Source: Octopus sinensis
Taxonomy: Eukaryota
Assembly (NCBI RefSeq): GCF_006345805.1
Contig: NC_043004.1
Location: 41,788,001 to 41,852,000 of the forward strand
Direction: 5' to 3'
Length of the DNA: 64,000 bases
A program made the position numbers and the translations under genes. The notes under the pieces were generated by a model, which saw only the letters and a program-made list of their open reading frames with translations, did no database searches and was not told the origin of the DNA. Positions 1 through 54,783 of this stretch are shown piece after piece. The first letter of the stretch is position 1. The number at the start of each line of letters is the position of its first letter.

Positions 1-519
1 TGAAAAGTTTTTCTTTGTTGTGTGGCAAACATTTATTTTGAAAATATATTTTGTTTCTCTATCAACCAACTCATTTTACAGTTTCTATAATTTAGTCTCT
101 CTTGATATGATTTTTAATATCATGAACATAGTGGCAGGTTCGAAACATGTGTTCCCCATCGCATTACTTAAAATGAACTACGATGGTGCGGCACACTATG
201 CAGGTACAATAATTGTTTTTATAACAAGTAAAAATCAAAAAAATGTTTTGCTATGTGCTCATGTCATTAAGGTGACCGCAGGTTAAGATTTATATACATC
301 TTTATACACATTCATTATATGTATTTGTATGTATGAATGTATCTAGCTATATAACTATCTATCTATCTTTCTATCTGTATGAATTTATATCATTGATTAA
401 AATCTTAGGGTAGCAAGAATATTCATAGAAAAATTCTTAGTTACCAGTGGTCTAGCGAGAAAGAAAAAATTAGTCAATAGACCATATATTATTCAAAGAA
501 GAATACAGTGTACGTTCAA

Positions 520-725
520 ACACAAAAGAGATACCCGAAGAATAGGATATCTGACTCGCTAGAAAGAGCAGTTAAAACTTCAAGCCCCCAATTGTTGTAA
601 TTCCGAAGGTGGTAAAAGTTTTTATTTTCCAATCACTTTCGGAATTACAACAATTGGTGGCTTGGAGTTTTAACTGCTCTTTCTAGCGAGTCAGATATCC
701 TATTCTTCGGGTATCTCTTTTGTGT
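520..725. repeat. Inverted repeat with ~94-bp arms (520-613 / 632-725) and an 18-nt spacer, within an insert (391-722) flanked by a 15-bp direct repeat
   Basis: ACACAAAAGAGATACCCGAAG...TTCCGAAGGTGGT is the reverse complement of ATCACTTTCGGAA...CTTCGGGTATCTCTTTTGTGT with ~4 mismatches. TGTATGAATTTATAT occurs at 376-390 and 723-737. Confidence 0.9.
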
Positions 726-1366
726 ATGAATTTATATATATAAAACAATATATTGATCATACAACGACCGTAAAATATCACTGAACGAAACTAATTAATA
801 GGAATGTATCCTTCTCGTAACAATACAATAAACTAACCAGTGCACAGCCTTAAGTTTATTACAGGCCACAAACTTGTGGCTTGTATGTTTGTTTTATGAC
901 TTACGAAGAATGCGTTCAATAAATATAGAATAATGCACTGCGGCAGTAATGTTTGATGCAAGTCCCATCAATTTATTTTCATTATCGAAAACTTTTGTTC
1001 TTTAATTACTCTTATTGTCGGTCATGTAACACGAACCCATAAAATGTCGACCATGACGAAGAATTGTAAGAAAGACATCCAACTAACTGTGGTAGTCGCT
1101 CCACAATACTTGACTTCGATTTTGATAAACCCATAGATTTAGATGAAGATTTTTGTGGAAATGCTGGAGATGGATTTCGATATATATTATCCTATATTTC
1201 TAAGTTTTTATCAAACAAAATTACTCTTTTTGCTTGTAGTATCCTCATTGCTTAGTGTTTTAAAATTCAATTTCAAATATATTCGTCACCATAAGAAAAA
1301 CTTAGACAACGAACATGCCATTATATATGCTTATATCTTTAGAGAATGGGCAGATATTGGTAACTG

Positions 1367-1806
1367 GGATCTTTTCGGTTTGAACGGCAGTTTTTTCTAG
1401 CGGTGTCATATGAAATTGTCACCCATAATTATGACCCTGGTATCGATCTATTGCATTTCAATCTGTTTTAGGGTTAGGGTTAGTTAGGGTTAGGGGTGGG
1501 GGAAGGGTTAGGGTTAGGGTTAGGGTTAGGGTTCACAAATGTAAATAAACCCAATCTGTTTCTTAAACGAGGGACATATTCATACGGCACAGAACGTTTA
1601 TTACCTCAATACACGTCATTGATTGGTTGAAATTGCAGAAATTGAAGAAAAAAAAAACAACAAATATCATACAAACTATAGAATTTTCTCAATAAAGCCG
1701 AGAGAAAAAGATGTTTTATAAACACATTCTAGCAGTATACGAAGTTAAAATTTTTTTAGTTACCTAGAAATTATGTTAAAAACTGCCGTTCAAACCGAAA
1801 AGATCC
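1367..1806. mobile_element. Non-autonomous DNA transposon (MITE) with GG-terminal TIRs, 8-bp TSD (Merlin-like pattern) and an internal (TTAGGG)n tract
   Basis: TIR GGATCTTTTCGGTTTGAACGGCAGTTTT / AAAACTGCCGTTCAAACCGAAAAGATCC. TSD GGTAACTG at 1359-1366 and 1807-1814. A second copy lies at 47890-48335. Confidence 0.9.
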
Positions 1807-3858: not shown

Positions 3859-4047
3859 TGGCGATTTTTTTCCCCTCCGCCTTCCCTTCTCTGGATCTTT
3901 CCTTTTCCCATGTTTCTGACGAAGAGCTCCGCTCGAAACATAAAACCCTCCTTCTTCCCTTCCTTCCTGAGCGTCCAATAATACTATATTTGTTCCACGT
4001 CCTCGCGTTGTTGTGTTTTCTCTTTGTGCTTTCATGTTTGGATTAAC
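3858..4047 (+). mobile_element. ~190-bp non-coding element with a hammerhead motif, inserted in (TA)n (putative Penelope pLTR-derived)
   Basis: Closely similar copy at 27090-27278. Both end GGATTAAC directly against a (TA)n run. Confidence 0.75.
3912..3946 (+). ncRNA. Minimal type I hammerhead ribozyme motif
   Basis: GTTT-CTGACGA-A-GAGC(TCC)GCTC-GAAAC-ATA-AAAC: core boxes, 4-bp stem II, stem I GTTT/AAAC. Confidence 0.7.
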
Positions 4048-4515
4048 TATATATATATATATATATATGCGTGCACAATTTCTGATGCAGGCAAAGCTGA
4101 AAACATGAGGGGAGTGTTCAGTCTTTCACATACTTCTGCTTAAGACTCTGGAATGTAATTTATAGGATCTCAGAGGTGTTTCAGTCTTGTTCCATGTGAA
4201 TTTGAAACAAATTCTCCAGCTGAGCACTGGACACGATGTTATCGACATATCTCCTCCCTTGAACTTACTGGTATTGTGTCAAAATTTAAAACCAATATTT
4301 TTAATGATATTCTGCTCGATGTATAACTGAAATAAAATAGTATAGATATAATAGTTAAAATAAGTTGTGTGGAAGATAAAAACGATTCAAAGCTGTTCAT
4401 ATTGAATGCATTTCTAACCTGTTTCATGCATTTCTAACAACCGAAATGATACGCGTTTATTATAAGCCGTTCACATGTTCAAGAAGATAGTCTTTTTTAG
4501 AGATTCAGTGCTTAA

Positions 4516-4651
4516 CCCTTTGAGCCCGTAACAGCGGTTTACATGTGGATAGCGTATTTTTTTCTATATCGCAGGACTGCTCTACCGGCGGAGTGCATCA
4601 GGAAGCCAGGTATACGGTCAAATAAGGTTCAGGATGTCAGGGCTCAAAGGG
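4516..4651. mobile_element. piggyBac-type MITE
   Basis: TTAA|CCCTTTGAGCCC ... GGGCTCAAAGGG|TTAA: 12-bp TIR with TTAA TSD. Confidence 0.85.
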
Positions 4652-13269: not shown

Positions 13270-16200
13270 TGCATGAGAGAGTTCGATGCAGCTGCCCTCA
13301 TCTGCCCCTCCTGCCGTGAAGTTGGTTCATCTGGGACACCTGACAGGAAGAGATCCAGCTTCATTTTAAAGACATCTGTATCCACCCCATGCAGGTCTCT
13401 CAGGTTCTTCGGGAGGATATTGAAGAGCTGGGGCCTCGGAAGCCCAGGCTATCACAGAATCTTGTCCTACATCTTGATGGCAGGTTTGGAGTCCTAGGCA
13501 CCACGCAGTGGCGCCCAGTTCTGGCATTTGCGTAACTCTCGATGCCAAAGTTCAGGACACTTCCCTCCAGGATCTTCCAGATGTATATTATGGCATATCT
13601 TTCCCGCCTACGCTCCAGGGAATATAATTTTAATCTCTTGAGTCTTTCCCAGTAGCTTACATTCTGCATAGAGGCTATCTTCTTTGTGTAGCTTCGTTGG
13701 ATCGCCTCAAGTTCTGTGATCAACTTGACACTGGATGGTGACCATAGCTGAGAGCAATAGTCAAAGTGGCTTAGGACAAGTGTCTTCCAGAGGACCATCA
13801 TGGTTTCTTGTTCTCTTGTTCTAAAGGTTCTAAGAATCCATCCAGCCAGCCGTCTACATTTCATTGTCAGTTTAGCAACATGTACATGAAAGGTCGCGTC
13901 ATCACTCATGTGAATACCCAGGTCACGCACTGATTGTGCCTCTGGGATTGCAATCCCTCCGGGTCCAGTGTATTCATTGGGTATTGCATTCAGTTTTGCA
14001 TGCTGATAGTATAAAGCTTGAAACTTTCCAGCATTGAACTGCATGCTATTCTTTTCAGCCCACTTGTATATTTCGTCCAGCTCACATTGCAGGTGTTTAG
14101 TGTCCTCAGGGTTCTGTATTGCCTGTGAAACTTTTGTATCATCTGCATAACTTGTGATCGTGGCTCTCTGCGTGGCTGAGGGCATGTCTGAGAGGCCATT
14201 ATGAACAGTAGTGGTCCCAGAACAGTGCCCTGCGGAACACCGCTCACTATTGTGTGTGTTAATGGAGGTGGCCCCATTGGCTACTACCACCTGACTTCTA
14301 TCCTTCAGAAAGTCATGAAGCCATTCTCCCAGTTTTCCAACTATGTTGAGATCACGCAGTTTGTGACATATCATTCCATGATCGACTTTATCAAAGGCCT
14401 TTGCAAAGTCGAGATATATCACTTCCACATTTGAGTGGTTGAGCAGCCGTTTCAGCACCCAGTCATAGTGTTGTAGGAGCTGAGTTAAACAGCTTCTCCT
14501 GGTCGGAAACCATGTTGGGTGTCGGGCAGCAAGTCATTCTCTTCAAGGAAGGTGATCAGCTTCCTTCTGACTATTCGTTCCATGACCTTGCTGATGTGTG
14601 AGGTCAGAGAGATAGGTCTATAGTTCTTGGCTTCCGCTCTGCTACCTCCTTTATGAATGGGGCATATTTTACCTTCCTTCAGTTTTCCTGGAAGTTTGCC
14701 AGCTGCAAGGAAGCTCTGAAAGAGGAACTGCAGTGGTCTGCTAGGACTCTCTTACATGCTTTTAGGAGGATTGCCGGGAATCCATCGGGGCCAGTAGCTG
14801 AGTCTGTTTTCATTTCATCTATAGCCTTGGTTACATCGTCTTCCTTTATATCGATGTAATCTATCGTCGCCGCCTCTGATTTTATCTGCAGTGGTAAAAA
14901 GTCAGTTGGATTGGTGATTTGGAGATGCCCAAGGGGTGAGTGAAAACACTCTTGAATTGCTCATTCAGTATTTCACTTACCCTCATTGGTTTTCCTGTAA
15001 GTGTGCCATCCTTTTCGAGGAGTGGCCCTATTCTACAGTGCACTGTAGCTGTTTCTTTGGCATACCTGTAGAAAGCTCTGGGGTTAGATTTTATGTTTTC
15101 TATAGCCCAGGCTTCTTTGTCTGCTCTTTCTTTTTCATGGGAGAGTTGCAGACATTTTTCGATTTCCAACAGTTTTATTTTTAGGCGGGACTTTTCACTG
15201 CTTTCAATCTGTTTGTTTAGGCGATTTGAAAATTTCGTACGCCGTCTCATTAAATTTTCCTCTCTCTGGGGATTTTGTTCTTGTGTACAGTGGCCTTTCT
15301 CTCTGGGACACATTTGTAGCATATGGCTTGCATTACAGACATGAATTGTTGAAGTTTCACGTCGATGTCTGGCGAGGAGAGACATTTAGGCCAGTTTTGT
15401 TTGAGGATCTCTTTCTCAATTTGTTTCCAGTTTGCCTTATGGTAGTTCAAGCTGGAAAGATTTTGAGGGTTTCTTGTAGGCTGCATGTCCGTGCTCTTTT
15501 GGCCCGTACATGGTCAGCTCTATCATGTTGTGATCCGAGAGTAGTGTCGGTGTCACTTTCACATTATGGATGAGATCCATGTCATTTGTGAAGCAGAGAT
15601 CCAGTGTGTTTCCTGCCCTGGTTGGTTGGAGTATTACCTGCTCCATGTACAGGGTGTTGATGAGGTTCAGGAGGGACCTCGCCTGTCCTCGTTCACATCT
15701 TGTCATTCCTGGGAGAGAAAGGCCCTCGGGCCATCTGACATTGGGCAGATTGAAGTCTCCCATAAGAAGCACACCTATGTGTTGTTCTAATGTGGTTAGA
15801 ATTTCTTCTATTTTTATAAGGCAGTCTTCAAACTTGCCCACATGGCTTGGGGCATCTGGAGGGCGATATGTAGCACACACAACTACATCAAGTTGCCTAA
15901 TATGTACAATTAGTGTGTCACACACCGAGTTTGAGTATGACAAGAGGACCTGGGGTGTGAGGTCCTCACAGATGTACATAGCAACACCTCCATGACTCCT
16001 TTCTTTCCTGTCGGTACGTAGTACAGCATACTGTGGTATGTGTAACTCCGCATCTGCTATGTCCGGTTTCAGGTGCGTTTCTGTAAGTGCTATGCATAAG
16101 GCTTGATTGCATGCAACAAAGTCTCTCAGGAACGGGATCTTTGTCCTGTTACTGAGTGTTTGCAGTCCTCTGATGTTCAGTAGGAGTATCGAGGTGAGGT
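13270..16200 (-). pseudogene. CR1 ORF2 (APE endonuclease + reverse transcriptase), broken by single-base frameshifts
   Basis: EN motifs LLNIRGL, ALTETHL, HGGVAMYI, YRPPD, GDFNLP, TLDLCF, SDH. RT motifs GPDGFP, NYRPISLTS, QHGFR, YLDFAKAFDKVDH, SGVPQGTVLGPLLF, YADDTK. CR1-type C-terminus LEAIQRSYTKKI...SYWERLKRLKLYSLERRRER. Confidence 0.95.
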
Positions 16201-16299
16201 GTACGTTGTTGCCGGCGGTGTCCATCCTGTGTCTGTTTGCTGTGGTGGTCTGGTATATAGTGGGTAGTCCCACCTGCGGGCTTGGTTTGATGAAGCCAG

Positions 16300-17078
16300 G
16301 TCAGCTGCTGTACAATCTTTTGCCATGCACAAAAAAGATTGTTGCTCAGCAGCTGCTCTTTCGACAACATCATGTTGGCTGTTTGTGGCGCGCACAACAT
16401 CTGCGTACCTCCGCTTTGGGGCAGGTGGTGCGTGTTCCATCCCTTTTCTTTGTGTTGATGGTTGTCCATCTGCCTCGTGTCTCTGTGGCAGGGTCCCCGA
16501 TGTGCAAAGCGGCAGCCTGCACCTTCCTTTCCGTGCCAGCAGGAACCTCTCAGGTAGAACATACACACCCCGTGTGCGCTGTTTGGTTCCATCCTTTGCG
16601 GTTCCACTTTTATTCCTGGTTGTTTCACTCTTTGGTCCTGCTTGAGCTTTTTCTTTTCCTTTAGCTCTTCCAGTCCTTCTTTTAGTTCTTCTTCCTCCCT
16701 CTACCTCTTCACCGGGTTCTCCGTCTCCATGGCCCTTGCTGCCGGTCGGAGAACTTGCACCTGGGTTCACTTCCCGGGCAGGTTTCTCATTCAAAACCTC
16801 CTCCTGGCGTCTACCAGGTGGGGGTGACTTCTTCATCGTCTCCATTCTTGCCATCTTTGCCCCGCTCGTTCTCAAAGATGGCATCAAGTGCCAATGTGCG
16901 ACAGTACAAGCGCATATGAGCGCACGAATTCTGTCTCTTTCGCTCCATCTGAGCCGCTGTCCTCTTGTAGCCTCTGCTCTTCAGCGCAGCCGCAATCACC
17001 TCGCTAGGGCTATCTCCGCCGGCGCACTCCCGCTCGTACGAATAAATCCAGCTCGTCACGTCTCCATGCTCTGGACAT
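16300..17078 (-). pseudogene. CR1 ORF1 (frameshifted): Myb/SANT-like N-terminus, basic linker, CCCH zinc finger
   Basis: ATG at 17078 gives MSRAWRRDELDLFVR, then after a frameshift EVIAAALKSRGYKRTAAQMERKRQN, and later CMFYLRGSCWHGKEGAGCRFAH. Confidence 0.65.
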
Positions 17079-17134: not shown

Positions 17135-18270
17135 AGATATTAAGGCTAATTAGAAGATAGAGTACTTGAAAAAGAAATATTAACAATATTAAAGTTTGTG
17201 TAAAACGTTATTTGGGTAAAAACGTTATTTAATCTTAAGGCTAATTAGGAGATAGAGTATCTGAAAATATATTAGCAATATTAATATATATTGAGTGTGG
17301 GTAAAAAAACGTTATTTAATCTTAAGGCTAATTTGGAGATAGAGTATCTGAAAATATATTAGCAATATTAATATTATATTAGAGTGTGGGTAATATTAAA
17401 CGTTATTTAATTTAATCTTAAGGCTAATTAGAAGACAGAGTATCTGAAAAATTATATATACAATATTAAGCAATATTAACCGTTATTTAATTTAATCTTA
17501 AGGCTATTAGACGTTATTATATTAAACGTTATTTAATTTAATCTTAAGGCTAATTAGAAGATAGAGTATCTGAAAATATATTAGCAATATTAATATTATA
17601 TTAGAGTGTGGATAAAACGTTATTTAATCTTAAGGCTAATCAGGAGATAGAGTATCTGAAAATATATTAGCATGTTAATATTATATTAGAGTGTGGGTAA
17701 TATTAAACGTTATTTAATTTAATTCTTAAGGCTAATTAGAAGATAGAGTATCTGAGAATTATTAACAATATTAAAACAATATTAAACGTTATTTAATTTA
17801 ATCTTAAGGCTAATTAACAATAATTATTAACAATATTAAACAATATTAAACGTTATTTAATTTAATCCTAAGGCTAATTAACAATAATTATTAACAATAT
17901 TAAACAATATTAAACGTTATTTAATTTAATCTAAGGCTAATTAACAGTAATTATTAACAATATTAAACGTTATTTAATTTAATCCTAAGGCTCATAAATA
18001 GACGTTATTAATATAAACGTTTTATTTAATTTAAAATCTTAAGGCTAATTAAAAGATAGAGTATCTGAAAAATTATTAACAATATTAAAACAATATTAAA
18101 CTTATTTAATTTAATCTTAAGGCTATTAACATAATTTATTAACAATATTAAACAATATTAAACGTTATTTAATTTAATCCTAAGGCTAATTTGACGGTAT
18201 CAATATTAAACGTTATTTAATTTAATCTTAAGGCTAATTAGACATAGAGTATCTGAAAAATTATTATATC
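17135..18270. repeat. AT-rich tandem minisatellite array upstream of CR1 ORF1
   Basis: Core AAACGTTATTTAATTTAATCTTAAGGCTAATTA repeated many times, with or without GAAGATAGAGTATCTGAAAA, in units of ~45-75 bp. Confidence 0.95.
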
Positions 18271-23209: not shown

Positions 23210-24833
23210 CACCTGTTGGTCCATGTGGTGATGTTGTATCATAGAACTTTTATGAATTTAAATTCGTCTTGGATATCATCTTCGAAGTGGTGAGCAGGAG
23301 CGCTGTCAGGGATGAGGAGGGCCTTGAGAGGAAGATCTTTCTCCAGAAAGTACTTTTCACCGCTAGTCCGAAGATAAGGTTGATCCATCCGGTGAAGAAT
23401 TGCTAGACGGTCCAGGCTTTAACATTTGCCCTGCACATGACCTGCAGATTTTCCTTCAGAATTTTGTGTGAACGCTCGGGGGTTTTCGGAATGGTAGACA
23501 AGGATCGGCTTAATCTTGAAGTCTCCACTCTCATTGGCGCAATGGGCGAAAGTTAGCCTATCTTTTATAGGCTTGTGACTTGCCATTTTCTTCTCTGCAG
23601 TTATGTAGGTTTTTCTGGGCATTTTGTTAAAAAAGGCCAGTTCCATCACAATTGAATACCTGTTGTACAATGTACACCTCGGCTGCGATGAGCTGACAGA
23701 ATTCACGCACGAAGTCCTCAGCTGCCTTCGTATCAGAACTCGCTGCTTCTCCGTACCTGACAACGCTATGAACACCAATTCTCTTCTTGAAATTATCGAA
23801 CCAGCCGCGACAGTCCTTAATTGCGTCTGCTGAGGTCTCCTTCGTTGATGTTCCAAGTTTCTGCTTCAGGAGGTCCCAATACAGCGCTCGTGCTTTCTCT
23901 CAGATGATGGTCTCCGTAATCATATCACCTGCGAGTTGCTTTTCGTTGACCCACGGGAGAAGCAATTTTTCCATCTCTTCGTGGACAAGTGTGCATTGTT
24001 TTGAGAGCCTGGAGACACCCTTTGCTGTCGTAACGGCCTTGATCTCGATAAATGGTGCAGATCATCGACGTGCTTCGGTCGTATTGACATGCTATATTCA
24101 CCACACGTACTCCTCTCCCATGTTTATCTTCAGTTTATCTTTCCTTCTTCAGTTCTGTCTTAATCAGCTTTCCCTTCTTCTCATCACTGCACTTTGTATT
24201 AACCTGCTTAGGGACCATGTTTAACACAACTGACTATTACAAAATAATAGCAATATCCGCACAAAACTAAAAAAGAAACACTATGAAAAACACACGGATG
24301 GTGCCACATCGACATAGTGGAGGCACATGGCCTAGTGGTTAGAGCAGCGGACTCGCGGTCGAGGGGTCGCGGGTTCGAATCTCAGACCGGGTGATGTGTG
24401 TGTGGGGGTTATGAGCGAAAACACCTAAGCTCTACGCGGCTCCGGCGGAAGGTAATGGTGAACTTCTGCTGACTCTTTCGCCACAACTTTCTCTTTCTCT
24501 TTCCTCCTGCATCTTGCAGCTCACCTGCGACGGACCGGCGTCCCGTCCAGGTAGGCAACTTATACGCCAAGAAACCGGGAAACCGGCCCTTATGAGCCAG
24601 GCATGGCTCGAGAAGGAACAAACAACATCGACATAAACACGTGAACTGAGCGATCGGAGATTGCGTTTGTTGGGGGAGCGTGTGCCAGTTCAGCGCCATC
24701 TAGTGGCTGCTTGTATGGAACCCGCTCGTACTGCGGATTTCCACTCGTACTTCAAGACAAAAATTCGCACGAGCCTCGGTTCGTGCAGCAAGCTTCTCGT
24801 ATAATGGTGCATACGTACTGCGAAGTTCTACTG
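23210..24833 (-). mobile_element. Decayed Tigger/pogo DNA transposon (CENP-B-type/DDE transposase remnant)
   Basis: KMPRKTYITAEKKMASHKPIKDRLTFAHCANESGDFKIKPILVYHSENPRAF is Tigger1-like. Terminal CAGTAGAACTTCG (minus) at 24833. Confidence 0.85.
24317..24624 (+). mobile_element. tRNA-derived SINE (tail type A) nested in the Tigger element
   Basis: A and B boxes; 11-bp TSD ACATCGACATA at 24306-24316 and 24625-24635. Confidence 0.93.
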
Positions 24834-33274: not shown

Positions 33275-33424
33275 ATAAGACTGACGTCTCATTTTAACAG
33301 ATATATTTACCAAAATTACATAAAATATCTTGAAATGCTAAAGAGTAAATTTGTTCAACAAAATTGCAATTGGCTTCAACCACGGCCTCCTTTTTTAAGT
33401 TGGTGAATGCTACCTAAAGCTTTT

Positions 33425-33772
33425 CTTCAGGACTTTCAAACAGGTCAAATTGTTGGTGCTCGTATGACAGGCGCTAGCGTAACAAAAACAGCCGAAATGT
33501 TCGGTCTACCAAGAAGTACTGTCTCGAAAGTAATGACAGCCTTTGAGAAACAAAACCTCGGAAGAAACCAAAACTATCAGATAGGGACCGTCATACACTT
33601 ACGCGAATTGTTAGAAAGGATCGCAAACGTACAGCTCCCAGGATTACTGCAGAGCTTAATAACCACCTCGAGAACCCTGTTTCCACAAAAACTGCTCGCC
33701 AAGAGCTGCACAAAGCCGGATTTCACGGGAGAGATGCAATCAGAAAACCACTAATTTCAAAAACAAACGTTA
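33425..33772 (+). pseudogene. Tc1 transposase N-terminal (paired-like HTH) fragment, truncated at the assembly gap
   Basis: DFQTGQIVGARMTGASVTKTAEMFGLPRSTVSKV, then after a frameshift GRKPKLSDRDRHTLTRIVRKDRKRTAPRITAELN...VSTKTARQELHKAGFHGR.AIRKPLIS. Confidence 0.9.
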
Positions 33773-33872
33773 NNNNNNNNNNNNNNNNNNNNNNNNNNNN
33801 NNNNNNNNNNNNNNNNNNNNNNNNNNNNNNNNNNNNNNNNNNNNNNNNNNNNNNNNNNNNNNNNNNNNNNNN
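33773..33872. other. Assembly gap (100 N)
   Basis: Run of N. Confidence 1.
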
Positions 33873-35123
33873 CATATATATATATATATGTATGTTGCAT
33901 GCATACACACACAAACACTTATGTGTGTGTCTGTCTGTCTGACTGTTTGTCCTTGTCAGTGTTTCGTGCTCACTCTGATTTCACAGCTTTCATTCCATTC
34001 TATTTGTCTGTCTGTCTGTCTCTATCTCTGTCTCTCTCTGTCTCCCTCTATCTTTAATATGCATGCCTACTTTTTGCATCACCTCTTTTTCTCTTTAACT
34101 CATCTATTCTCTGTTTTTCATTATATCTCCCTATACCTTTCTTTCTTTCTTTCTTTCTTTCTCTCTCTCTCTCTCTCACTCTTTCTCTCTCTCTGCCGTC
34201 GACATTTTCCATCCATATATTTCTTGTCACTTTCGTTCTTTACTGATTTTCTTCTGAATTTGCGCATCATTCACTCCCCCCCCTCGTACATGAGACACAT
34301 TGCGCCACCCTCCTTATCTTCTTTCTGCTTTATCAACCTCACCTTCACTTTTTTTCCTCACTAATACATTACATCTTACGCTCTTCTTTGTATTTCTCCC
34401 TCAATTTCTAATTCACTCCCTCGCTATCCCATTTTCTCTATAACATTCACATACACAAACGCTCGCGCTCACACACACATACACACGCACACCACATTCA
34501 CATTCACACACATACATACACACATATATTTATATATAATTGTTTCTAGCTCCTTATGACTCAGTCATTCTCTGTCAAACTTTCGTTGTCTCTTTTCTCA
34601 GTTTCCCTCATGATGGCGTTTCGTCTTTAATCTTTTTAATTCCTTCCATTACTTTGTGAGATTCTCACTTTCTGATTATTTATTCTTCCTTACTTTCTTC
34701 TTCCCTTTATGCCATTCTCTCTCACTATCTATTTTACTCACGTGTTCATACGTTAATTCCTTAATCTCTTCTATACACATGCGCACGCACAAAGATACAA
34801 CCTCTCCCCAATATTCTCTTGTCCTTTCTCTTTTCTGTCCTCATTTCAATCGTTTCTCCCTTCTGCTTCTTTTTCTTTCTCTCCTCCGTGTCACCTCTCA
34901 CAAATGCCCTTTACTTCTTCCTAATTTCTCTGATTGTTCCTACTACAGCCTCAGTCACTTCTGATTCACGATAGTTCAATAATATTACACTTATTTACAG
35001 CTTTTAATTTTCCCCCATTCAATTCTCTGCCAGACTGTCCTTATCTGCTCGTTCATCTCTCTCTGTCTCTTTCTCTCTCTCTCTTTCTATCTTTTAAATT
35101 CGGATGTATGAACTATTGACGTA

Positions 35124-42459: not shown

Positions 42460-42945
42460 TAACTTTATTTCATCTGTCTTAGTACCGAACATGCCCCGGA
42501 GGCCAAGATTAGCATGGGCACTTTTGTTTTACTATGTATGCTAAAATTATCACCACATTTATTCCATTTTAGATGGATGGTGCTTTCCGTAGCATATAAG
42601 TTGTACCCATCAAAGTTATCTTTTGTGAAAGTACGGGGATTGGAGTTACCTGGGGTTTACTTAATATACTTCTTAGCCCCCTTGTTTATCATTCCAAACG
42701 CACCAATTACTACTGGTATTATCGTAGTACTAAGCTTCCACATTTGTGTGATTTCAATTTGAAGACCTTTATAGTGAGACAGCTTTTCGTATTCCTTTCT
42801 TGAGATATTTTGATCTTGTGGGACAGATATATCTATTAACAGACAAGTTCCTCTGTTGTAGTCCTTGATCACAATGTCTGGTCGATTGGAGTTAATTTTC
42901 TGTCTGTTTGTATTGGGAAGTTCCAATGTATTGGGAAGTTTCCTT
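42460..42945 (-). pseudogene. Dong/R4-clade retrotransposon 3' end (restriction-like endonuclease)
   Basis: HWNFPIQTDRK / INSNRPDIVIKD...CLLIDISVPQDQNISRKEYEKLSHYKGLQIEITQMW...IIPVVIGAFG. Ends toward a (TAA)n tract. Confidence 0.9.
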
Positions 42946-44539
42946 GGACGTTCTTCCGCTCGAAAGATTGCGTACGTCCTATTGCCTCGTCGTTGTCGTA
43001 ACCTTGCCGAAGTATGCTCAGTGTCTCTGTAGTAAACTTCCCAATTTGATGCAAAATTTCTTTGTTCCAATTTCCTGTCCATAACAAAAATCGCAGGCTA
43101 CAGTATACCCGTGATCACAAAAACAAAATTTCACAATTTGCCAAGTAAACCCAGCGATGTCTGTTTGGCACACTGTCTCATGAAGATCCCTGATATCTCT
43201 CACTGCGCAGGCAACAGTGTGCTGATATCTATTGGCGTGCAACAAAACTAGTCCAGGGACTTTGTGGTACCACCTCGTAAGTACCAGTCGAGCTCTTGGG
43301 TCGATGTTATCGACTAGGCCCGACCCCTAATATTTAAGTCCTTATGCCTATAGTAGAAAGGGCTATTAGGAGGGTGCATTTGCGAAATCATTAGGGGTTC
43401 GGAAAAATACATTATGGTATTCCACCTCGATAATACGCTACGGTCTGAGATCACGTTTGAGATTAACCCTAATCATGTCAAATTCGAATTTGCTCTTCAT
43501 TTCTCCGGGTTCGAAAAAATAAATTACCAATCGAGTACTGAGGTCAAATGCAACAACTTAAACTTTCTTTTCAATAGTTAACTATACCTAATTTAGAAAC
43601 AGCTATTAAGGACGATGGATTACCAGAATCGTTAGACCATACCTCGCATACCTCGCATACTTGTTCCGGTTTTTTTTGCATTCTGAGTTCAAATCCCGTT
43701 TAAGTCAACTTGTGCTTTCGGGGTCGAAAAATAGCGTACCAGTCAAACACTGAGGCATACTTAATTTGCTAATTACCGCACTAAAAATTTCTGGGCTAGT
43801 GCCTATGCAAAAAACAATCATCATTATTATAGCGGAACAATTTCGTTTTCTTTTCTATCTCTAGATCAAATGAAAGTGAGTGAAACAAGCCAACTAATAA
43901 TTTTATTAAAATACTATTGTCTCCAAGCTACACGAAGCATTTGGCAACAAAATCTTTTAGCTTTTTATCAGCCTGGAGTTTTCCGTTGTTTACATAAGAG
44001 AAAAAAGAACAATTTATCGTCCTTTTCACAACAGTAGAAAACTGCTCAACCTTGCTATTAGCATCTTATTTATATTTTTGCTTGCTAATTTGTAATATTC
44101 ATTTATTTATTTGCCTGAAGAGGGATAATTGAAGCATTTGGGTATACATGACATTTTACGGGAAATTTCTTAATAATTTTGTCTCTTATGTTTTTCGTTT
44201 TCTTAGTGAAAAATTAATTACTGACATCTTTAAGCTATCGCAAATTAAGGAGGCAATTTACTTCGCGATAACAAGTTGTATTTCTCTGGTGATTTCAGAG
44301 AATTACATTCTTTTAAATACATTACTAGATAGTTATCAGCTCTAACTGTTGTCACTAATTATTATAGTTGTCCAGGGAGCTGGGTTCGCTATCTGGCTTC
44401 AATTGTAACTAAAATCAATTTTAGTTCAATTACGTCAGGGATATCCATAAGGACAAAAGTAGAAAATTCGACACATTCTAGTGTCGCCCCCTTCGAAATA
44501 ATTAGAGATATTTGCAGCTCCTAAATAATATTGTTTAAT

Positions 44540-47889: not shown

Positions 47890-48335
47890 GGATCTTTTCG
47901 GTTTGAACGGCAGTTTTATCTATCGGTGCCATATGAAATTGTCACCCATAATTATGACCCTAGTATCGATCTATTGCATTTCAATCTATTTTAGGGTTAG
48001 GGTTAGTTAGGGTTAGATTTAGGGTTAGGGTTAGGGGTTAGAGTTAGGGTATCTTTTTTTCTTCACAAATGTAAATAAACCCAATATGTTTCTTAAACGA
48101 GGGACATATTACTATGGCACAGAATGTTTGTTACCTCAATAGACGCCATTGATTGGTTAAAATTGCAGAAATTGAAGAAAAAACAACAACAATTATCTTA
48201 CAAACTATAGAATATTCTCAATAAAGCCAAGAGAAAAAGATGTTTTATAAACACATTCTACCAGTATACGAAGTTTAAATTTTTTTAGTTACCTAGAAAT
48301 TATGTTAAAAACTGCCGTTCAAACCGAAAAGATCC
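47890..48335. mobile_element. Second copy of the TTAGGG-containing MITE
   Basis: Same TIRs and internal sequence as 1367-1806. Flanked by TATATATATT on both sides. Confidence 0.92.
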
Positions 48336-48872: not shown

Positions 48873-48973
48873 TTATATATTCCTTTATGTGTATATACAT
48901 AATATACACATGCTCACACATAATCACGTAGACACAGAAATTATATATATACATATACATATATATAATATAC

Positions 48974-49012
<39 letters not shown>

Positions 49013-49022
49013 CATATATATA

Positions 49023-49076
<54 letters not shown>

Positions 49077-49091
49077 TATATATATACACCC

Positions 49092-49128
<37 letters not shown>

Positions 49129-49135
49129 CATATAT

Positions 49136-49188
<53 letters not shown>

Positions 49189-49342
49189 CATATACAAAAG
49201 CAATAAAGATTCAAGTTAATTTAAATGAATTTACTTGAATATGGTACCTAACTTAGATGCACCAAAAAAAACTATACTGTTTTAACAATACAGTAATGTG
49301 GGGTGATTATAAGCGAGAAAGAAGCAACAAGAATGGATAGGT

Positions 49343-49432
49343 TTTTAGTACAATCGTTTCATACAAGGACAGGCTTTATTAAATGTTGCAAAATTACAGC
49401 ATACAAACGCGTCCCGTACTCATCAGCTAAAA
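49343..49432 (-). ncRNA. Hammerhead ribozyme with an extended stem II (intact core)
   Basis: Minus strand: TTTTAG-CTGATGA-GTACGGGAC...GTCCTTGTAT-GAAAC-GATT-GTA-CTAAAA. 6-bp stem I, GUA triplet. Confidence 0.82.
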
Positions 49433-50294
49433 TACATGTGAGTTCTTAGACATCCTAGTGGTTGAGGCTATACTCATGAAGTAATGTAGATAATTAAGTA
49501 ACATAAACAGATTTCCAAAGTTCATTAAAGTTCTTTAAAGATGATGTACAGTCTTATCACATAATTTTAAAAAAGTTTTAATAGCATCACAGAGAAGGTG
49601 ACCTAATCCATAGTGCACATATGAATTTCCAGAGATATGAGGAGGGATTACATACTCACAGACGACAAATTTATCCATTGTTAATCACAACGAGGTGGGT
49701 CTCAATTCCTGCTTATTAGCATTACAGAGAGGGTGAATTAATCCTTTGTATAGATGCACAATTTCCAATGGTGTAGATGTAAATTTCCAGAGAAATGAAG
49801 AGGAATTTCATATTCACAGGCGATAAATTTATCAATGGTTGAACACAATGAGGTAGGTATCAATTCTTGTTACCACCTCATTGTGTTCAACCATTGATAA
49901 ATTTATCGCCTGTGAATATGAAATTCTCTTCATTTCTCTGGAAATTTACATCTACACCATTGGAAATTGTGCATCTATACAAAGGATTAATTCACCCTCT
50001 CTGTAATGCTAATAAGCAGGAATTGAGACCCACCTCGTTGTGATTAACAATGGATAAATTTGTCGTCTGTGAGCATGTAATCCCTCCTCATATCTCTGGA
50101 ATTCATATGTGCACTATGGATTAGGTCACCTTCTCTGTGATGCTATTAAAACTTTTTAAAATTATGTGATAAGACTGTACATCATCTTTAAAGAACTTTA
50201 ATGAACTTTGGAAATCTGTTTATGTTACTTAATTATCTACATTACTTCATGAGTATAGCCTCAACCACTAGGATGTCTAGAGAACTCACATGTA

Positions 50295-50384
50295 TTTTAG
50301 CTGATGAGTACGGGACGCGTTTGTATGCTGTAATTTTTGCAACATTTAATAAAGCCTGTCCTTGTATGAACGATTGTACTAAAA
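50295..50384 (+). ncRNA. Mirror copy of the hammerhead (GAAAC read as GAAC)
   Basis: TTTTAG-CTGATGA-GTACGGGAC...GTCCTTGTAT-GAAC-GATTGTA-CTAAAA. Confidence 0.75.
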
Positions 50385-50500
50385 ACCTATCCATTCTTGT
50401 TGCTTCTTTCTCGCGTATATATACAATATATATATATACATATATATATAACATATATATATTATATATACATATATATACATATATATATATATTATAC

Positions 50501-50567
<67 letters not shown>

Positions 50568-51560: not shown

Positions 51561-51836
51561 TGGTAAAAACGGTAAGATAACAAAAGAAAGAGACCTCAAT
51601 ATTATGTAAATAGAGGAAATTTATCTGTAAAATAATATGTGACAATTATTCAATAGCCAAGATAAAACTCGGAGTTTCGGATGCCGAGGTGGAAATCCAC
51701 ATCATCTCTTCGGTTATCTGTTTTTTCAGATGGCCAGATAACCGAAGAGATGGTGTTGTGGATTTCCACCTCGGCATACGAAACCAAGAGTTTTATCTTG
51801 GCTATTGAATAATTGTCACATATTATTTTACAGATA
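51561..51836. repeat. Fold-back insert in (TA)n with ~100-bp arms (51622-51720 / 51735-51836), each carrying an HHR-like motif
   Basis: AGATAA-CCGAAGA-GATG...CAT(C/A)C-GAAAC...GTT-TTATCT at 51736-51798 (+) and 51660-51719 (-). Confidence 0.85.
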
Positions 51837-52229: not shown

Positions 52230-54783
52230 CGAGTTGTTGGTTTTGATTGTCTAAGCAGCAGGTCGGCCGGATTTCTTTCAACGTCTAGAGGTTTTCCTGG
52301 GAACGTCTCGACCTTTGCTTTTAGTGAGGGATTGGAACGCTACTTTGGACACGCAGCTAGACTACTGGGTAGCAATAGGAATAGGAGGAGATGTAAATGC
52401 CTCAAAGACCTGCTCAGATGTTTCCAACTGTCTGACAGGTAGCGACTGGGCCACCCGCATATGCCAATGTGGACATGGAGTAGCCGCATTGTGTCGTCCA
52501 GATCGTATTTAGATAGAGTATTTTGTAGAACAGTGGATAGGGATAGTGTAGGTTGTCCACAATTTCGTATAGTCAGCTACACAGGTCACAGGCAGGGCGC
52601 TGGTTACTGGAAACTGAGCGTATAGTCCACGGCGCGACAGGCTTACAAACAGTACGTTTGATGAATAAGTGAAAAGTAAATGCTTAAAATAAAAAAAATT
52701 TGATTGGCGTTGACGGGAGCCATCGTCAACAATAGATGGTGATATGCCCTATAGAAAGCAATCAAAGCAGAATCGGTTGTAAGGTTCTATCGATAGATCG
52801 AAATAGAATAGAGGGAGACCTAGTTAAGAAATTAGAAGAGGCACATAGAAGTAGTATGGCGTCGAAATTGGTTCTCAACCAACACTTCTACGCCAGACAC
52901 GAAGGATGCGTTGTCAGAGCTAGGATGCGTCCTCTGAGAAACGTAGGAAATGAACCCGCCCGAGAGATCCGAGTGGCGAAGCGCAACGAGGCAGCAAAGC
53001 CACCAGTAGGTCTCTGACAGATGAACAGAAGCGCGGGCCCGAAAGGATGTGTAAGGCCTTTCAACAGTATTTTGCCCAACTGTTCGGGACAACTGGTGGG
53101 TCAGAACGAAGAGTGGACTTTATTGCCTACCTGCATGGCCCGCAACGATTCTCGGCAAGACTGGCGGAGCGTTGTGAAAAGCCCATCACAACCGCGGACG
53201 TACGGGATGCGATGGCATGCTGCGCAGGAGACAAGTCGCCAGGCTTCGATTGTCTACCCTAAGAACTTTATTGTCAAATGCCAGACTTGTCTGGAGGCGT
53301 CTTGGCAGTAGTCTATTGTAACTGGCAGCAAAACTGGACTATCCTTAGTTTTGTGAGCCGAGGAGCGGTAGCATTGCTAAAGAAAGATCTAAACAAGGGA
53401 AACGTCATAGATAACGTCAGACTCATCAATCTGCTCAACGTAGATTGAAGATTTTGGCCAAGTTACTAGCCGAGAGGTTAGCGCTTGTCATCGAGAAACT
53501 ATTCGACAAAGTGTAAACATGCGCCGTGCCGGGAAGGAGTATCCATAACAACCTCCATCTGATGCGCTACATCATAGATAGGGTAGTCAAGGAACCTGGC
53601 TTGGGTGGAGCGCTGATCAATGTGGATCAATCGAAAACTTTCGGTTGAGTCAACCATCGTTACTTGGAGTCTGTCTTTAGAGCGGCTGGTTTCGGTCCCG
53701 TTTTCCGCGGTTGGATCGCTGCCTTATACATCGGCATCCGCTCGGTAGTTCGCGTAAATGGTCATCTATCTAGACTATCTATTTAATATCACGCTTTCAG
53801 TTCGTGAAGGATGCTCTCTCTCGTCGCTTCTGTACGTATTCATTGTAGAGCCACTGTTGCGGAAGCTGGTGACGCTGCGCGGCATCCCGCGAGAACTGGG
53901 TGGAGCGTGTCTGATGATGCGCAGACATGTGCTGAGATTGTGACATCTCCGGCGCTTCATAGACGACGGTGAACAGGTATGTTCGCTGTTTGTGAGACGC
54001 GCTTTCCCGTAGCTTGTCTCTTTGGCCGAGCTGCAGTTATGGATCAGAGAGAGAGCAAGGCTAGGCGAATGGTACCGCAAGTGCCGTCTTGCCCTCTAGC
54101 AAATCTGTCGTCCGGGACCGAACTTGTGCGACTTCAATTCCACGAATACTATAGAGGAATAGTGGAGGGGAGGTGCGACGAAGTTTCATGGGAGAATCTG
54201 GCCGTCGACGAGGAACGAACACCTGACCCGCCTCCTCAGGACCACGTTCGGGCCGGGACCTATGAACAATCACCAGAGATCCCTGGCCTGGCACTGCTAT
54301 CGGGAAGCATTGCCCGTTTGGGATAAGCACTACAAGCACGGTTCGAGAAACACCGGACCGACTTGCCCGAGATGCGGTCAGAGCGACGAAACCGTTCTGC
54401 ACGCACTCGTGCAGTGTCCAACCATTTCGGACCTGTGGGCTTATGTCGAACGGCTGCTGTCACGTATGGGACAAATTCAGTTATCCGCCGAGTCTATCGT
54501 GAATATTGCCCCGCCCCCTTCCTTAACCGGGATGGCAAGGCAGTTTTCATTCTACTGGGGGATATGGTGAAAGAATGCGTGTGGTGGACTCGTCCGAAAG
54601 GTTTAGAGACACACACTTTCCTCTGTGGCCAATCGCTCATCAACTTTTTTAGATACCTCTTGAAAAGGAACGTGAGAATAGAGATGAAAATTTTGTCTCA
54701 TGAAAGTTTCAATAAAAGGTGGGTGAATGTAGCAAAAATGGTACGCGTGCATGACGAAACCACTTTCAGCATGATGCTGTAAC
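52230..54783 (+). pseudogene. Decayed Tx1/L1-clade LINE ORF2 (EN remnant, RT, C-terminal CCHC) with an internal deletion
   Basis: LVRDWNATLD; SYLDRVF; DKSPGFD; RLINLLNVD; TCAVPGRSIHNNLHLMR; SVREGCSLSSLLYVFIVEPLL; TCPRCGQSDETVLHALVQCP. (GA)n follows at 54790-54860. Confidence 0.92.

Follow-up and report, generated by a model that had tools for sequence, protein, structure and literature searches.

According to the accessible portions of Craig et al. 2021 (PMC8557442), Penelope-like elements (PLEs) occur with inverted 5'-truncated copies and with a tail of 30-40 bp, often at one end only. Hydra-1_Obim and Penelope-13_HM are listed there with an inverted copy, and in the supplement the 5'-truncated inverted copy of Penelope-13_HM goes along with hammerheads on both strands. 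The same text gives RWK, DKT, CxCx5C, CxxC, CxH and (TA)n targets as hallmarks of the Hydra clade, for which a length below 3 kb is a tendency rather than a defining trait. Also, opposite-strand hammerhead pairs 100-700 bp apart are ascribed to truncated PLEs in the available part of PMC4209133, where a short palindromic stem III is presented as a signature of hammerheads predicted to act as dimers. For PAc, a Poseidon PLE of Anolis, the accessible text of Frangieh et al. 2024 (PMC11167929) reports cutting and extension of both strands in vitro, two internal reverse transcription (RT) starts that bound the tail, and the use of uncleaved hammerhead RNA as template. How PLEs integrate, and how inverted copies and tails arise, are questions still listed as open in these portions of PMC8557442 and PMC11167929. 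In Octopus vulgaris, the part of PMC13282606 available to us reports 30 recently active Penelope families, and the family treated here may already be present in a repeat library.

The window analyzed in this work is a stretch of 64,000 nt from Octopus sinensis (contig NC_043004.1), and it contains a palindrome at 49195-50414. We consider it highly probable that this palindrome consists of two 5'-truncated copies of a Hydra-clade PLE placed head to head within a (TA)n tract, produced in one insertion in which both cut strands likely primed RT. It is likely a single insertion of a young element and ordinary in kind; indeed, the locus is one of many hundred similar young insertions and in itself matters little, the value being in the family.

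The palindrome and its hammerheads

A preliminary description placed near-identical inverted arms at 49313..50414, and such arms are present there in the assembly. When 49195-49863 is aligned locally to the reverse-complemented 49864-50430, 548 positions match, 3 mismatch (two of them at the edges) and 7 one-base indels appear, and with simple repeats masked this is the sole inverted repeat of such length and identity in the window. The left copy (49195..49872, minus strand) is a 5'-truncated piece of the 3' UTR/pseudo-LTR, 98.7% identical to positions 3938-4617 of the element unit at locus L031, whereas the right copy (49875..50414, plus strand), also 5' truncated, is 97.5% identical to that unit. 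The outer ends differ. The right copy, of the short-end type, stops 36 nt past the ribozyme cut and is followed by a G and (TA)n, as would fit the arm end first proposed at about 30 nt past each hammerhead; however, the left copy, of the long-end type, ends 154 nt past the cut, running 118 nt further to 49195. This 118-nt 'tail' (49195..49312, minus strand), found in the left copy only, had been overlooked, and in tandem copies its sequence runs on into the leader of the ORF, with the AUG at about +211. The supposed 11-nt spacer between the arms is actually extra 5' element sequence of the left copy: the center (49859..49874) comprises these unpaired bases and a junction of 2 nt, and the 5' truncation points of the two copies lie about 9-18 nt apart depending on the alignment. 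An internal direct repeat of about 90 nt with 82% identity (49624-49715 and 49782-49872) belongs to the element 3' UTR. The (TA)n target tracts extend over 48942..49194 on the left and 50416..50563 on the right, and a target-site duplication is unreadable inside such sequence.

A palindrome of this type could also be a fold-back chimeric long read carried into the assembly. The arms differ by seven one-base indels as against one internal substitution, and near-identical copies of the element show frameshifted ORFs, which would agree with an artefact and indicates base-level assembly errors. Nonetheless, flanks and ends would be mirrored in a fold-back read, whereas here the flanks differ between left and right and one end is long and the other short, following the rule of the family. 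An artefact is therefore extremely improbable, and the locus is very probably real in the genome, beyond the assembly. Arm sequence is partly present in 20 of the 24 sequencing runs listed, none of these 20 being recorded as RNA; in contigs of four runs over 49825-49935 the center is spanned by none of the pieces listed, and the loose ends are ordinary family sequence.

The left arm contains a type I hammerhead with an intact core (49343-49432, minus strand; predicted cut after 49349), formed by a 6-bp stem I, CUGAUGA, a 59-nt stem II, GAAAC, GUA and a 2-bp stem III with a self-complementary loop. Its mirror image lies at 50295-50384 (plus strand; corresponding cut site at 50378), so the placement of one hammerhead near each outer end, both pointing outward, is confirmed; on the other hand, the right core is one A short in the assembly and reads GAAC, not the GAAAC first reported. 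Exact copies of the ribozyme 3' half number 2,005 with GAAAC versus 18 with GAAC genome-wide, and the right-arm form would be an assembly slip or a dead copy, at a rate compatible with slips in one-base runs. The Rfam comparison that had been proposed returned no hammerhead at the gathering score over the window and none at E<=10 over 49200-50500. The Rfam matches that did appear are to generic hairpin families, and the long stem II likely defeats the hammerhead models.

As Rfam gives no match, the hammerhead call rests on core sequence, pairing and covariation. Over 19 sequences of the family and its subfamilies, a set of few independent lineages, 92% of the stem cells are paired and 4 of 22 pairs change on both sides (two of these in stem I), whereas slid controls pair at 29-49%; covariation across copies, on which the preliminary description had let its reading depend, is thus present. 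The stem II region measures 56-60 nt in the family, and stem III consists of two pairs plus an 8-nt self-complementary stretch in the three variants examined (3/3). With a stem III of 2 bp, dimer dependence is suggested, and by analogy with other short palindromic stems the family hammerhead would likely need a dimer. The active fold differs from the predicted minimum-energy fold (z -0.11). The hammerhead likely serves the RNA cycle of the element, helping, as a dimer or with a protein, to process the RNA to unit length, and would be a passenger at the window locus.

Octopuses belong to a lineage with abundant A-to-I editing, and the preliminary description linked ribozyme cleavage to a large dsRNA. 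It can be imagined that the host uses the element, with a read-through RNA forming a 540-bp duplex for ADAR or Dicer that is switched by cleavage. A transcript across the locus is indeed predicted to form a long duplex, and the available part of PMC3846280 reports small RNAs from inverted PLE structures in a rotifer. However, whichever strand is transcribed, the arm with the sense hammerhead is the second to be made, and folding of the 1,231-nt palindrome is predicted to pair this hammerhead throughout (-977 kcal/mol, compared with about -14 for the ribozyme fold). Moreover, the right copy is without one core A, a motif that likely needs a dimer would occur only once in sense orientation per transcript, and this is one among many hundred young pairs. 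No host coding exon was recognized among window ORFs of at least 95 aa, beside which short exons may remain. Neither do the copies show a sense A>G excess (A>G at 55 of 1,495 A columns, T>C at 73 of 1,322 T columns; 69 segments, 4,100 columns), a count that bears only on editing carried into cDNA. Host use is thus very unlikely, and a cleavage-versus-duplex switch at this locus is unlikely. The reading of the palindrome as a miRNA precursor was also rejected.

The element family and its clade

Comparison of the arm with its own genome yields 1,714 candidate places, the best 40 scored being about 99% identical, and in 20 longer stretches it extends upstream by up to 4.6 kb. In other copies the arm runs upstream into an RT/GIY-YIG ORF, for which the preliminary description had suggested looking, and this and the high identity of the copies support the recent, PLE-derived origin proposed for the arms. 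An open frame of 947 aa is present at L063 (L063:2998-5838). L031 holds a partial tandem composed of a truncated copy, the leader, a frameshifted ORF, a 1.7-kb 3' UTR and the arm, and at four tandem loci (L031, L064, L065 and L066) the unit length is 4,552-4,630 nt. With an RT fragment as query, 9,822 candidates are obtained, the 150 scored spanning 100% to 67% identity.

A model of the L063 protein (mean pLDDT 72.5) has a telomerase RT (TERT) as its top Foldseek match (E 1.9e-8). It reaches a VIA Z of 14-16 to TERTs, level with a DGR RT, and YRDD is located at residue 355. Residues 825-929 superpose on the GIY-YIG catalytic domain of I-TevI (Z 10.5, rmsd 2.3, 89/92), and an Atlas search pointed to a cluster with 33% PF01541. 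Pfam gives no match at the cut-off for six L031 fragments, two long frames and 16 aligned proteins, with a below-cut-off match to GIY-YIG in 2 of the 16 relatives only, and a PDB sequence search with the element protein found none. RWK is present at 37 and DKT at 124, both conserved in the subfamilies; the CxCx5C linker reads CKCRIKSKC at 808, CxxC reads CQLC at 905, and CxH reads CVH at 935, while CCHH is absent from the proteins as judged by eye on the alignment. Also, the copies sit in (TA)n targets, as in the Hydra clade. The shortness of that clade (<3 kb) is not shared, since Asn-rich inserts and the 1.7-kb 3' UTR bring the unit to 4.55-4.63 kb. Judged from its motifs and target, the element is an EN+ PLE of the Hydra clade. 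The PLE traits found are a telomerase-related RT in a single ORF, a C-terminal GIY-YIG, pseudo-LTR tandems, 5' truncation and an inverted truncated copy.

The Asn-rich inserts of the L063 ORF are two and disordered (residues 486-574, 24% N, and 664-804, 38% N), and in some subfamilies they are longer, giving frames of >1,000 aa. The nearest named proteins carry Octopus annotation. Among public entries, the family fragments P0001, P0002 and P0034 are annotated as kinase-like or GATA zinc-finger proteins, names that likely stem from the Asn-rich composition.

The leader between the ribozyme cut and the AUG (L031:6566-6790, minus strand) folds strongly (z -7.5). Its first 154 nt correspond to window positions 49195-49348 (minus strand), and both element ends map within the leader domain. 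In 7/7 sequences, positions +11..23 form a 13-bp helix with the region of the start codon, in which changes are one-sided only; the other leader helices show 7 two-sided pairs in these seven sequences, four of which are near-identical.

Other features were observed along the window and the loci. Shorter or older palindromes occur at window 515-730 (216 bp, 90%) and 51622-51836 (215 bp, 87.5%) and at L031:1307-1988 (680 bp, 92%), all three unrelated to the PLE by BLAST and possibly MITE-like. Hammerhead-like motifs of other families are found at L064:2743(+) and 2207(-), L081:1833(+) and 3436(-), and L082:2587(-), the L064 pair facing outward near (TA)n. Translations judged by eye reveal decayed mobile elements at window 13403-16980 (-), 52954-54779 (+), 33407-33939 (+), 23422-23865 (-) and 42660-43097 (-), namely a LINE that retains frames for endonuclease and RT, a further LINE fragment, fragments of Tc1/mariner-like and pogo-like transposases, and a fragment of a restriction-like endonuclease. 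Short degenerate interstitial (TTAGGG)n tracts (window 1468-1533 and 47991-48050) and an AT-rich minisatellite with 54-87-nt and 185-nt periods (window 17217-18266) are also present.

Two ends, probably one insertion

Copies of the element end at two sites, about 36 nt (short) or about 155 nt (long) past the ribozyme cut, and the same two ends recur in subfamilies at 66-74% protein identity. Short ends are matched by exact patterns 733 times and read-through sites 1,017 times. One contig (C1) has 55 short and 62 read-through matches, among which there are 30 outward pairs within 10 kb, all 30 combining a short with a long end, and this set contains 2 tandem neighbors and no inward-facing pair. 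A second sample from C1, the first 100 of the 2,005 ribozyme matches chosen without regard to end type, overlaps with the former and is not independent of it: 68 of these 100 copies form 34 outward-facing pairs, each with one short end (34/34), the other being long in 33 and reading through into the leader in one. A tail of about 119 nt is thus found at one end in 33 of the 34. A non-LTR retrozyme was rejected as the source of the arms, the unit being 4.6 kb long and coding and the neighbors among these 100 copies being 3 tandem versus 34 divergent. Solo copies of the element also occur.

Truncation of the inner ends varies, covering a range of 30-4,400 nt. Long inverted arms in many near-identical copies would also be expected of a foldback or MITE-type DNA transposon with long terminal inverted repeats, but the unequal termini, the variable internal structure, the tandem and solo copies and the RT ORF speak against this candidate, which was rejected as scarcely credible.

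The arms within a pair resemble each other more than they resemble those of other pairs. The stem III loop allele is concordant in 34/34 pairs (19 TT, 15 CC), and in the 15 pairs with at least 150 common columns the substitution level is 0.41% within pairs (34/8,276) versus 0.91% between pairs; the window arms have in common an allele absent from all other arms of this set. This suggests that the arms of each pair come from one source, and gene conversion between arms could be partly behind the common alleles.

The centers give information on how the two arms are related. For 33 of the 34 pairs, one with a 77-nt gap being dropped, the arm with the long end exceeds its partner by >40 nt in 12, the reverse holds in 9, and the other 12 have a center that is symmetric within 25 nt. 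The symmetric class is much larger than expected by permutation (mean 1.7, maximum 7 in 20,000), and an earlier sample of 23 loci, taken from the best-scoring matches, under-represents it, 2 of the 23 being without an adjacent pair. At the window, the offset of 9-18 nt puts the locus in this class, so the term fold-back used in the preliminary description is fair. Short palindromic fillers are seen at several symmetric centers (L088, L107 and L111).

A single cDNA started at the long site could fold back and copy itself, with the endonuclease trimming or resolving the hairpin at +36; self-priming and EN-mediated tail resolution are discussed in the accessible text of PMC3846280 and PMC8557442, respectively. 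This would account for the 12 symmetric centers of 33, the window included, and for the alleles shared within pairs, and the +36 site adjoins an AT-rich stretch. However, in 9 of the 33 pairs the short-end arm exceeds the long-end arm by 45-3,243 nt and cannot be its copy. As either arm may be the longer one, neither merely copies the other. Moreover, in the available part of PMC11167929 the two ends of the tail are assigned to RT starts. We therefore regard self-copying as improbable for the family as a whole.

We favor priming at two sites, in which the unequal outer ends, one long and one short, likely stem from two RT starts on the element RNA within a single insertion. The RT-GIY-YIG protein, probably as a dimer, would cut both strands of the (TA)n target; then +36 would be the priming site of one 3'-OH and +155 that of the other, each site adjoining UA-rich bases of the structured leader, and the two cDNAs would extend upstream across the ribozyme site. 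Because both cross this site, the template would be an uncleaved multimer or a ligated circular RNA. The cDNAs would stop early, and stops that are far apart (21 of 33) would be joined via short microhomology or filler, whereas for symmetric centers (12 of 33, including the window) either one cDNA would fold back or both would run off the same broken RNA end. Simple templated priming leaves one detail unexplained: 21 of the 34 short ends read CGCG and then TA-rich sequence, with a G missing from the read-through sequence (for example, window 50414-50416), which is perhaps an untemplated base or slippage.

A stronger form of two-site priming can be put forward tentatively, as something that might hold but that we would not yet expect to. 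Here, the dimer would obligately prime both target strands on a single RNA (multimer or circle), at two sites separated by about 119 nt. These sites would be presented by the conserved structured leader of about 200 nt, which starts at the hammerhead cut and also pairs the AUG, and in this way the processing by the ribozyme, the control of translation and the two-site priming would be coupled. Roughly one event in three would end as a perfect hairpin, seeding hundreds of long palindromes.

Comparison with described elements

The significance of the family lies in its being young and in having about 2,000 ribozyme-bearing ends, which gives a countable end rule, arms from the same source, a fold-back class and exact predicted RT starts. 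The long tail, the long stem II, the structured leader and the countable ends make PLE integration testable, and if the stronger form of two-site priming is the true reading, the family would be a genome-scale record of Penelope integration. Long, near-perfect palindromes in octopus also derive from it, and these would be relevant to A-to-I editing if they are transcribed. No published description of the family or count of its end rule was found, and closed papers, Repbase, Dfam and the remaining supplement of PMC8557442 may hold one.

The Hydra clade shares with the octopus element RWK, DKT, CxCx5C, CxxC and CxH in the EN, the C-terminal GIY-YIG, the (TA)n target and a type I hammerhead in the pseudo-LTR. 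However, the octopus unit is 4.6 kb long rather than <3 kb and has two Asn-rich inserts in its ORF. The stem II region is 56-60 nt, whereas none of the 26 rows for Hydra elements in the accessible supplement of PMC8557442 exceeds 24 nt; two Selaginella PLE-X rows there also show long stem II regions. The tail is about 119 nt compared with the 30-40 bp described in that paper. By comparison of hammerhead rows only, the octopus element is a family other than Hydra-1_Obim (2,507 bp).

For Poseidon PAc, the RT starts reported in the available text are adjacent and inside the ORF, whereas in the octopus family they are predicted to lie about 119 nt apart in a noncoding leader before the AUG. PLE hammerheads and non-LTR retrozymes, in the accessible parts of PMC4209133 and bioRxiv 10.64898/2026.07.22.740005, have the same type I core and a short palindromic stem III predicted to be dimeric; yet retrozymes are described there as short tandem noncoding monomers, and the octopus arms are fragments of an autonomous 4.6-kb element. 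The Penelope elements of Adineta vaga, as given in the available part of PMC3846280, are similar in their head-to-head inverted pseudo-LTRs, one-sided tail, palindromic junctions and Asn-rich inserts, and they differ in having few copies, a 31-bp tail and readable target duplications of 8-10 bp. Opposite-strand hammerhead pairs and one-sided tails are thus already published, and what is added here are the counts of ends, alleles and centers on C1, which the roughly 2,000 ribozyme-bearing ends of the octopus family permit, in contrast to the few-copy families of Adineta vaga.
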